Source of the DNA: a virus
Taxonomy: Duplodnaviria; Heunggongvirae; Uroviricota; Caudoviricetes
Length of the DNA stretch: 6,368 nt
Strand: one strand, 5' to 3'
Virus record (IMG/VR): IMGVR_UViG_2695420564_000005
Location: 1 to 6,368 of that record
The position numbers were made by a program, and so were the translations under genes. Of this stretch, positions 1,458 through 4,233 are shown piece after piece. A model generated the notes under the pieces. It ran no database searches. It worked only from the letters and a program-made list of their open reading frames with translations, and was not told the DNA's origin. Position 1 is the first letter of the stretch. Each line of letters begins with the position of its first letter.

Positions 1458-1746
1458 CTGTTTAAAACTAAAACAAGATGCTCCGTCATCAACACTGACA
1501 GCGCGCCCTTCCTCATATAGATATGCATTAATAATTGCAGCCACTACAACACCATTCTCTTTTTGCGCGTTATCATGATTTCCTTTACTTCTATGGTCAT
1601 GACAACTGTTGCTATTTTCAGGATTCGCCAGAACTGGCGTAACCAGAAATGAGATTGATACAACGGAGACAACGCCAGGCCATAGTCGTCAATTTTGCTA
1701 TTATGTTCGTAAACATAAACGACAAAATTGAATGCAGAGGGAAAAA

Positions 1747-2349
1747 ATGGGTTCCACCAGAAAGGGGATGCTGAACGTTTTGATTGCCGCCGTATTATGG
1801 GGGAGTTCCGGTGTCTGCGCACAATACATCATGGAACAAAGCCAGATGTCGTCGCAGTTTCTGACAATGACACGTCTGATATTTGCTGGCTTTATTCTGC
1901 TGACGCTCTCATTTTTTCACGGCGATAAAGTCTTCTCGATAGTAAAAAATCATAAAGACACCATCAGCTTGCTGATTTTTTCCGTGCTTGGTGCGCTGAC
2001 AGTACAACTGACCTTCTTACTAACCATAGAAAAATCAAATGCGGCTACGGCAACGGTACTACAGTTCCTCTCGCCAACAATTATTGTGGCGTGGTTCTCG
2101 CTGGTTCGTAAATCGCGCCCAGGAATTCTGGTATTCGCCGCGATCATGACGTCGCTTATCGGTACTTTTTTGCTGGTGACTCACGGAAATCCCACCTCAC
2201 TCTCGATTTCTCCCGCAGCACTCTTCTGGGGAATCGCCTCGGCTTTTGCTGCTGCGTTCTACACCACTTACCCCTCTACGCTCATTTCTCGCTACGGTAC
2301 GCTGCCCATCGTCGGCTGGAGTATGTTGATTGGTGGTCTTATCCTGCTA
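1747..2349 (+). pseudogene. yicL: 5'-truncated remnant (about 201 codons) of an EamA/DMT-family transporter (YicL-like); the C-terminal third is replaced by prophage sequence
   Basis: ATG at 1747 preceded by AGAGGGA; product [27 protein letters not shown]... is an EamA-type N-terminus. Transporter-like hydrophobic sequence ends at ...[12 protein letters not shown] (nt 2349), followed by a hydrophilic linker and the esterase gene. The ORF-track start at 1732 (MQREK) is probably a spurious extension. Confidence 0.65.
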
Positions 2350-2382
2350 AATAACTCTGTTCCTCTACACGGGAGAAATTCG

Positions 2383-4233
2383 ATGTTGATTAAACATTAT
2401 GATGTTGTCAGGGCGGCGTCGCCGTCAGACCTTGCGGAAAAGCTGACACACAAACTGAAAGAGGGCTGGCAGCCGTTTGGTAGTCCGGTGGCCATAACCC
2501 CTTATACCCTGATGCAGGCGATTACAGCAGAAGGTGATGTGGTGGTCAGTGGTGCAACTGAGCCGGATTGGTACTACGTCATCGTACTGGCCGGGCAGTC
2601 CAATGCCATGGCTTACGGTGAAGGGCTTCCGCTGCCGGATTCATACGATGCTCCGGATCCGCGCATTAAACAGCTGGCGCGCCGCAGTACAGTGACGCCG
2701 GGCGGGACTGCCTGCAGATATAACGATATTATTCCGGCCGACCACTGCCTGCATGATGTGCAGGATATGAGTACGCTGAATCATCCGAAGGCAGACCTGA
2801 GCAAAGGGCAGTACGGCTGTGTCGGCCAGGGTTTACATATTGCCAAAAAACTGCTCCCGTATATCCCGAATAACGCGGGGATCCTGCTGGTACCATGCTG
2901 TCGTGGTGGTTCGGCATTCACCCAGGGCGCGGAGGGGACATTCAGTGCGGACACGGGGGCCAGCCAGGATTCGGCACGCTGGGGTGTGGGTAAACCGTTA
3001 TATCAGGACCTGATTGCGCGCACTAAAGCTGCATTACAGAAGAACCCGAAAAATGTGTTGCTGGCGGTGTGCTGGATGCAGGGAGAGTTTGACATGAGCG
3101 CCGCCACCCACGCACAGCAACCTGCGCTGTTTACAGCCATGCTGACACAGTTTCGTGCTGACCTCTCCGTGTTTAACGCGCAGTGCCATGGTGGCAGTGC
3201 TGCAGATGTGCCGTGGATTTGTGGTGACACGACGTATTACTGGAAAAATACATACGCTACCCAGTACGACACCGTGTACGGCGGGTATAAAAACAGGGAG
3301 AGTGAGGGCGTTTATTTTGTGCCCTTCATGACAGACGGTAACGGCGTCAATACCGCCACTAACGCGCCGGCAGAAGATCCGGATATTCCGGCATCAGGAT
3401 ATTACGGTGCGGCATCGAGAACGAATGGAAACCAGGTATCATCAAACCGCCCGACACATTTCAGTTCATGGGCGCGCAGGAGCATTATTCCGGATCGTCT
3501 GGCAACCGCTATTCTGAACGCAGCCGGGCGCACCTCCGCCTTCATCAGTGGTAAGGCACCGGAAATTAAACCCTCGCCCGGCGGCAACACGCCATCGGGT
3601 CCGTCTGCAGATACGTCCGTTCGCACAATCTCCCTGCTGCCGGCAGCCGGAGAGGCTGCTGCGCAGGGCTGGAGCATTAAGGATGGCGGAATTCAGTTGT
3701 CAGATGGTGTATTTAAGATCACCAAGCAGAGCAATAAAACCTGGTCCCTGACGCATCCGGTGGATGACGCAATTACCCTGCTGACACAGGGCGGCAGACT
3801 GACCTGTAAGTTCCGCCTGTCAGGCGCACTGACCAACAATCAGTTCGGGCTGGGGATTTATCTGTATACGGATGCTCCCGTTCCTGATGGTGTGGCGATG
3901 ACAGGTACCGGTAATCCGTTCCTGATGTCGTACTTCACTCAGACCACTGACGGCAGAGTGAATCTGATGCATCACAGGAAAGCCGGAAACACGAAGCTGG
4001 GGGAGTTCGGCGATTACGGTAACGACTGGCAGACGCTGGAGCTGGTGTTCACCGCCGGCAGTGCCACGGTTACTCCGAAACTGAATGGAGTGGCTGGCCC
4101 GGCATTCCAGGTCATAAAAGACAGTCTGACACTGGGGCTGAATGCACTGACGCTGACGGATGTTACAAAAAATGCAGCGTATGGCGTTGAGATAGAAAGT
4201 CTGGTGCTGGAGATAAATGCACCCGCAGCATAA
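2383..4233 (+). CDS. nanS-p: Prophage-encoded sialate O-acetylesterase (NanS-p-like; N-terminal DUF1737-like region plus SGNH/SASA esterase domain plus C-terminal beta-rich domain), about 616 aa if it starts at ATG 2383
   Basis: ATG at 2383 preceded by GGGAGA at 2371-2376. N-terminus [21 protein letters not shown]..., esterase motif [16 protein letters not shown] (GQSN serine block), tandem stops TAATAA at 4231-4236. The true start is uncertain because the reading frame is open back to 1732. Confidence 0.75.

Follow-up and report, generated by a model that had tools for sequence, protein, structure and literature searches.

A probably accidental yicL'::nanS-p reading frame in a patchwork of Escherichia DNA

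The window, by which the whole analyzed stretch of 6,368 nucleotides is meant, carries bacterial and prophage genes, several of them incomplete. When compared by blastn with loci that were fetched by exact-protein look-up, it resolves into four pieces. The features recognized along it are the following.

1-133, plus strand: internal fragment of thiC (thiC'), approximately nucleotides 777-910 of a 1896-nucleotide coding sequence, 100% identical to thiC of E. coli 06-00048 (L018)
133-134, no strand: join 1, between thiC' and the region upstream of setC, with one shared base (A) and no filler in a base-by-base comparison with L018 and L009
273-1457, plus strand: setC, MFS sugar efflux transporter, intact, 394 amino acids (Pfam MFS_1, E = 1.8e-38)
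1747-2348, plus strand: yicL', EamA/DMT transporter, the first 200 2/3 of 300 codons (Pfam EamA, E = 2.1e-23)
2349-2351, no strand: join 2, AAA filler, from a three-way alignment of the window, L009, and L002
2352-2382, plus strand: native nanS-p leader of 31 nucleotides, identical to the sequence upstream of the esterase gene in L001-L007
2383-4233, plus strand: nanS-p, complete, prophage sialate O-acetylesterase, 616 amino acids
4526-4732, plus strand: class II holin S (Pfam Phage_holin_2_1, E = 1.2e-32), with gene order as in L001-L007
4737-5081, plus strand: DUF1327 (YdfR-family) phage protein (Pfam, E = 1.2e-45)
5132-5665, plus strand: phage lysozyme R (Pfam Phage_lysozyme, E = 3e-24)
5939-6285, plus strand: ant', antirepressor gene cut at join 3, the first ~116 of 231 codons
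6286-6368, plus strand: lptE', 3' fragment from about codon 159 of 193, out of frame with ant'

The piece from 134 to 2348, which covers the region upstream of setC, setC itself, and yicL', is 99.5-99.96% identical by blastn to ten chromosomes (L008-L017) that encode an identical SetC. The identical SetC protein occurs in 144 blocks of the collection, and the 24 contigs that were read include complete E. albertii chromosomes; one of the ten, CP025317.1, is E. albertii. The same piece is ~83% identical to E. coli. Only a 3' fragment of lptE is present in the window, and it matches the E. albertii type strain NBRC 107761 (L020) at 83 of 83 bases, as against 82-84% identity to E. coli lptE. The closest homologues of the esterase, among the best 120 in a protein-cluster search, also bear E. 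albertii names. The type-strain match of lptE', the names of the esterase homologues, and the distance of the setC-yicL piece from E. coli together suggest that the host is E. albertii. The internal 3.9-kb slice of a prophage late region at 2352-6285 is 99.9% identical to seven loci (L001-L007), and the intact ant at 13557-14252 of L001 carries the ANT domain (PF03374). The thiC fragment is identical to L018 through base 134, and its reading frame crosses join 1 and stops at 164-166. In 3,571 E. coli genomes it has a match of at least 99% identity, whereas the pieces next to it reach only 82-84% with E. coli. A protein search with the ThiC fragment returned short fragments only; the one hit on a large contig, L022, shares 96.6% identity with E. 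coli thiC.

The left part of the long reading frame had been called a truncated EamA transporter with six or so helices in the preliminary description, and blastn, Pfam, and the hydropathy profile all agree with that account. Intact YicL relatives have 300 amino acids and 10 hydrophobic segments. The window copy stands at its native site after setC, and its residues 1-201 are identical to E. albertii alleles, with no private base; unlike intact YicL, however, it does not have residues 202-300, which comprise the end of TM7 and TM8-10. According to the hydropathy profile, TM1-6 and 17 residues of TM7 are retained and TM8-10 are missing. The top-scoring hit to EamA covers the first repeat (residues 11-149), and the second repeat is incomplete because residues 202-300 are absent. 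The window copy is therefore not a YicL with two EamA repeats and ten helices.

The right part of the frame is a nanS-p gene with its ATG at 2383, and a GGGAGA Shine-Dalgarno sequence lies at 2371-2376, six nucleotides 5' of that codon. The exact 616-amino acid product of 2383-4233 is recorded on 11 public contigs, which indicates that the N-terminus of the esterase is complete, and the exact gene is present in L001-L007; the earlier description of a phage NanS-p-like esterase with its own GGGAGA and its own start at 2383 thus holds. All three domains expected of NanS-p are found above the Pfam gathering score: DUF1737 at ~2392-2532 (2.8e-15), SASA at ~2557-3519 (2.2e-12), and the DUF6645 jelly roll at ~3781-4113 (6.9e-18). 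This three-domain architecture has been described previously (bioRxiv 10.64898/2026.04.10.717836; PMC10462455). The best structural matches are to NanS (3PT5, E = 1.4e-121) and to the NanS-p C-domain (6YP6, E = 8.7e-30). The alignment of the SASA/SGNH catalytic domain to 3PT5 covers residues 59-379 and shows the GQSN block to be conserved; from it, the product is predicted to be active on 9-O-acetylated sialic acids. The similarity to NanS/YjhS, the chromosomal 9-O-acetyl-N-acetylneuraminate esterase of E. coli, is in the catalytic domain; the solved chain of NanS has 337 residues and no counterpart of DUF1737 or DUF6645, since it aligns with the catalytic domain only. NanS itself has an export signal and functions in the periplasm. 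In the protein-cluster search (best 120), the identity of the window esterase is 58% with the common E. coli alleles but 98-100% with rarer alleles from Escherichia. Judged by its sequence, it is a NanS-p of the usual sort and nothing new in kind.

The surroundings of the gene are partly those of a phage. In Stx phages, nanS-p is located directly upstream of the holin gene S (PMC10462455). As in the NanS-p genes of Stx and other lambdoid phages (933W, phi24B gp84), the window gene encodes DUF1737-SASA-DUF6645 and lies upstream of holin S, DUF1327, and lysozyme R, with the holin at 4526 and the lysozyme at 5132 as in a lambdoid late region. Those of the L001-L007 loci that reach far enough have Q, a methyltransferase gene, and TerB, followed by nanS-p, holin, lysozyme, and ANT; no stx genes were found in the 10 kb examined in the related loci. 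Unlike in lambdoid nanS-p loci, where the gene is expected downstream of Q (and stx), the phage DNA 5' of the 31-nucleotide leader is replaced in the window by yicL'. The N-terminal DUF1737 of the homologous phi24B gp84 has been reported to be a capsid-binding or decoration domain (bioRxiv 10.64898/2026.04.10.717836).

A different combination of a host gene with nanS-p is present in the E. coli draft GCA_053292605.1 (L021, P0040), in which a 682-amino acid narG'::nanS-p' reading frame follows narK and is itself followed by genes for a holin, a DUF1327 protein, and a lysozyme. Like the window, this draft has the 5' part of a host gene fused in frame, at a putative junction, to nanS-p with lysis genes behind it. 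It differs in that its esterase is itself truncated: homology begins only at the position corresponding to about nucleotide 2878 of the window, so that DUF1737, the GQSN block, and the N-terminus of the catalytic part are lost.

Between the two genes, the mechanical list of open reading frames has a single frame on the plus strand from 1732 to 4233, with an ATG start and 833 amino acids, as the preliminary description had reported. Position 1732 is the most upstream ATG of this frame; the start calls in ten E. albertii genomes place the native yicL start at ATG 1747, from which the frame is uninterrupted to 4233 and the product would have 828 amino acids. Pfam finds EamA in the left part of the 833-amino acid sequence and DUF1737, SASA, and DUF6645 in the right part. 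Alignment of the two halves to intact yicL and to phage nanS-p, which had been proposed earlier, mapped the edges to the base (2348 for yicL, 2352 for the phage) and recovered a complete esterase N-terminus. The end of the transporter had been placed at nucleotide 2349 (GGLILL), which is correct to within one base: chromosomal homology ends at 2348, two bases into a codon, with the last shared codon at ...GGLIL-L. The spacing of eleven codons before the esterase was also right, as 2350-2382 separate the yicL' part from ATG 2383.

The openness of the frame is no more than expected by chance. The 31-nucleotide leader from the phage is free of stops in the frame of nanS-p, and at the native phage locus the nearest in-frame stop is 51 nucleotides upstream of the ATG. 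A join in the right phase, for which the probability is 1/3, is therefore enough to give an open fusion. A filler of 0 or 3 bases leaves the frame open, while 1 or 2 bases would close it at residue 202 or 214. Only one of the three joins in the window, yicL'/nanS-p, fuses two coding sequences in frame. The remark in the preliminary description that the in-frame join may be coincidence is well served by these odds of one in three.

At join 2, the sequence reads ...ATCCTGCT|AAA|TAACTCTG..., where the chromosome would read CCC and the phage TTT; the AAA at 2349-2351 agrees with neither parent. Join 3, at 6285/6286, is blunt and brings ant' and lptE' together out of frame. Within 6.4 kb there are thus three joins, between thiC, setC-yicL, prophage, and lptE sequences, each with an overlap of 0-1 nucleotide or a 3-nucleotide filler and each cutting within a gene or leader. 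A repeat search at the three joins found no insertion sequence ends, att-like repeats, target-site duplications, or flanking direct or inverted repeats. The parental loci continue without interruption where the window breaks. The ten chromosomal loci are 99.5-100% identical to each other over 200 nucleotides on either side of the yicL breakpoint. At the setC-side breakpoint, nine of them are 98.5-99% identical to each other over the 200 nucleotides upstream; the sequence of the tenth (L008) differs there, and a transposase gene lies next to its setC on the upstream side. Among the seven phage loci, identity across both phage breakpoints is 99.5-100% wherever their DNA reaches. Because the parental loci are collinear across the breakpoints, the breaks are private to the window and are not natural boundaries of islands or modules. 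Scanning for promoters and terminators turned up fewer promoter-like sites than in shuffled sequences and nothing informative near 1457-1747 or 2300-2400.

Several specific technical sources can be considered. The pieces are very accurate copies, with 0-3 mismatches each and no indels, an accuracy that excludes a raw noisy long read as the source. Misassembly in a short-read graph is an atypical fit, as the joins are blunt and have no shared k-mers. Both points count against an artefact. By eye, the three joins have no restriction-site signature (GATC or AATT) in common, so Sau3AI-type ligation or a Hi-C origin is not indicated.

The join was sought in other genomes and in protein collections. 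None of 5,426 complete E. coli genomes spans the yicL/phage join, and none spans join 1 or join 3; in the 2,158 E. coli genomes with a match, all of the phage-side matches listed start at 2352 and none extends across join 2. The junction 29-mer was found zero times in species-representative genomes, JGI metagenome contigs, and IMG/VR, with E. albertii represented in the searched data by about ten chromosomes and one species representative, and the ant'/lptE' junction was found zero times in the JGI metagenome contigs. Exact-product look-up gave no record of either the 833- or the 828-amino acid product. When the 828-amino acid sequence was used as a query against 5.8 billion protein clusters, the best 120 matches were all of the esterase type with coverage of at most 74%, and none combined EamA with SASA. 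A domain pair that recurs in independent genomes, as would be expected of a selected fusion, is therefore not seen among these best 120 proteins. In all ten E. albertii chromosomes, yicL is intact with 300 amino acids and is followed by yicS. Relatives with an intact yicL and with the phage module elsewhere are what the preliminary description had named as evidence against its junction, and such relatives are what was found.

Of the two readings offered at the outset, one had a prophage fragment landing in yicL with the esterase translated from its own start. ATG 2383 and its GGGAGA, the native signals of the gene, are in keeping with the second half of that reading, but the first half is not supported: there is no integrase, att site, or duplication, and lptE' follows the phage DNA. 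Canonical site-specific integration into yicL, or a decayed remnant of such a prophage, would account for phage DNA directly 3' of a truncated yicL and is nevertheless extremely improbable. The phage side is the middle of a late operon rather than an att site or integrase end, and the slice, which runs from 31 nucleotides before nanS-p to inside ant, holds no integrase gene. Flanking repeats are lacking, the 3' part of yicL is absent with lptE' in its place, and the yicL region of relatives has no prophage within 9 kb downstream. An att site by an integrase, core repeats, and the remainder of the host gene, by which site-specific integration is recognized, are all missing. The other reading, a membrane-anchored enzyme, fares no better, as no such fusion is among the best 120 proteins and the carrier is left without TM8-10. 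In this reading, TM1-6 of YicL, possibly with a short TM7, would hold NanS-p at the inner membrane; insertion of TM7 would turn the esterase toward the periplasm, where the chromosomal NanS acts. The frame is indeed open from 1747 to 4233, the TM7 stub is still hydrophobic (Kyte-Doolittle 1.67 over 19 residues), and hydropathy together with a positive-inside reading suggests an N-in 10-TM carrier in which helix 7 exits to the periplasm. Such a functional anchored esterase is still very unlikely. It has no second example among the best 120 proteins from 5.8 billion clusters, the join is unique with a non-templated filler, and the carrier is broken within its second EamA repeat. Basic residues are abundant in the linker and at the beginning of DUF1737; this disfavors export and, with the shortened TM7 stub, argues against export of a 616-residue domain. 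The strong internal Shine-Dalgarno sequence and ATG would give free enzyme anyway. In phi24B, moreover, DUF1737 is reported to bind the capsid and to require a free protein for this (bioRxiv 10.64898/2026.04.10.717836), and a capsid-decoration role is incompatible with a membrane tether. A read-through fusion would be of uncertain topology, and it is highly improbable that a living E. albertii strain carries the junction and makes from it a stable inner-membrane protein, with six or seven helices of YicL holding active NanS-p at the membrane, possibly on its periplasmic side. If this were true, a membrane-anchored sialate deacetylase would have been newly created, with constitutive expression from the yicL promoter and not from the phage late promoter.

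A real rearrangement in one E. albertii strain, in which illegitimate recombination or deletion joined yicL to the late region of a prophage, is unlikely but deserves more weight than either of these. It would leave yicL inactivated and a normal nanS-p under yicL transcription, with the esterase made from its own start, and the retention of the native leader, Shine-Dalgarno sequence, and ATG fits this outcome. Every piece is genuine E. albertii-type or Escherichia DNA, with identities of 99.5-100%. A comparable narG'::nanS-p' chimera adjoins holin and lysozyme genes in an E. coli draft, and since host-gene::nanS-p chimeras occur in deposited genomes, a deletion that joins host and prophage is possible in principle. 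The window, however, would require three independent illegitimate joins, free of insertion sequences, within 6.4 kb. The essential lptE is cut short by one of these and thiC by another, the phage piece breaks off a second time, inside ant, after only 3.9 kb, and none of the joins was found in any relative or public contig searched.

The explanation we favor, with a probability of roughly 80%, is that the 833-codon frame is an accidental by-product of a blunt join of unlinked E. albertii DNA, the joins most likely being chimeric or concatenated. Under this explanation, one piece would be chromosomal yicL ending in codon 201, the next would be lambdoid-prophage DNA starting 31 nucleotides upstream of a complete nanS-p, and the window as a whole would represent four unlinked loci, namely thiC', setC-yicL', the prophage late region, and lptE'. 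The joins most likely arose outside a living genome, whether through chimera formation in a molecule or an assembly or through concatenation, because three joins without insertion sequences or repeats bring together four distant loci, with thiC cut and lptE reduced to its 3' end. The lptE gene is essential in E. coli, and no known in vivo process leaves a viable enterobacterial genome with such a pattern of joins. Should the DNA nevertheless be present in a cell, yicL would be a dead pseudogene without TM8-10, an ordinary soluble 616-amino acid NanS-p would be translated from its own Shine-Dalgarno sequence and ATG 2383, and any read-through fusion would be a minor, misfolding-prone product. 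The fusion is most likely not a real biological feature.

For the biology of these proteins, the finding matters little. Both halves are well known, YicL as a carrier and NanS-p through solved structures and a literature of its own, and the join between them looks accidental and is probably non-biological. The patchwork was revealed by two further abrupt joins in the same window, and the lesson is that, when a long chimeric reading frame is met in one window, relatives should be examined for collinearity before the birth of a gene is claimed. If the fusion were real and recurrent, it would show how a host can capture an accessory enzyme of a phage and make it a membrane protein of its own.

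The window begins and ends in broken genes, and the prophage late region between them retains two terminator-like hairpins:

1-166, internal fragment of thiC (approximately nt 777-910 of the coding sequence), including its read-through frame
4241-4270 and 4444-4470, pair of strong terminator-like hairpins in the interval separating nanS-p from the holin gene
5939-6368, truncated antirepressor gene (ant) followed by a fragment of lptE

At 133/134 the thiC fragment lies directly against the setC upstream region, with one base common to both, and past this join the thiC frame stays open for another 10 codons before reaching a stop at 164-166. 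The thiC fragment is matched at ≥99% identity in 3,571 E. coli genomes. The neighboring setC-yicL piece, by contrast, shares only about 83% identity with E. coli, so the window may be a mixture of species. At the other end, the phage antirepressor (ANT) gene is broken off after about 116 of its 231 codons, and its join to lptE is blunt and out of frame. The lptE fragment comprises the last ~35 codons of the E. albertii gene and agrees with the type strain at all 83 bases; lptE is essential in E. coli.

Within the 3.9-kb phage piece, the only base differing from all seven reference loci is 4146, an A in the window and a G in the references, which is a synonymous difference within nanS-p. No private bases were found in the chromosomal piece when compared to its reference loci. 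Both hairpins are native phage sequence: one, reading on the minus strand, has 11 pairs and a T run and lies directly past the nanS-p stop, and the other, reading on the plus strand, is ~55 nt ahead of the holin start.

The surroundings of setC-yicL vary among the ten E. albertii chromosomal loci (L008-L017). Several have, after yicL-yicS, a type III secretion translocator-like cluster (at ~13200-20300 in several loci), with SseC-like, T3SS_TC, TPR chaperone, and Trans_reg_C regulator genes, as well as a very large invasin/intimin-like gene; others lack this block, and there DUF1198 and purine permease genes come directly after yicS. The block 3' of yicS looks like a variable island. Upstream of setC, also in a variable island region, one genome (locus L015) carries a candidate retron-type or other defense gene in a P4-like island:

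L015 5517-7148, 543-aa gene with reverse-transcriptase (RVT_1) and TIR domains

A chimeric nanS-p reading frame is also present in an E. coli draft genome (GCA_053292605.1, locus L021):

L021 6001-8049, 682-aa ORF (protein P0040)

In P0040, the N-terminal and molybdopterin domains of NarG are joined to two nanS-p domains, SASA and DUF6645, and its gene is preceded by narK and followed by phage holin, DUF1327, and lysozyme genes. From this domain mix and setting, it looks like a fusion of a host gene to a prophage remnant in a deposited draft genome. Two other long NanS-p matches may also be chimeric: P0021, of 912 aa, and P0027, of 752 aa, which contains a Collar domain.
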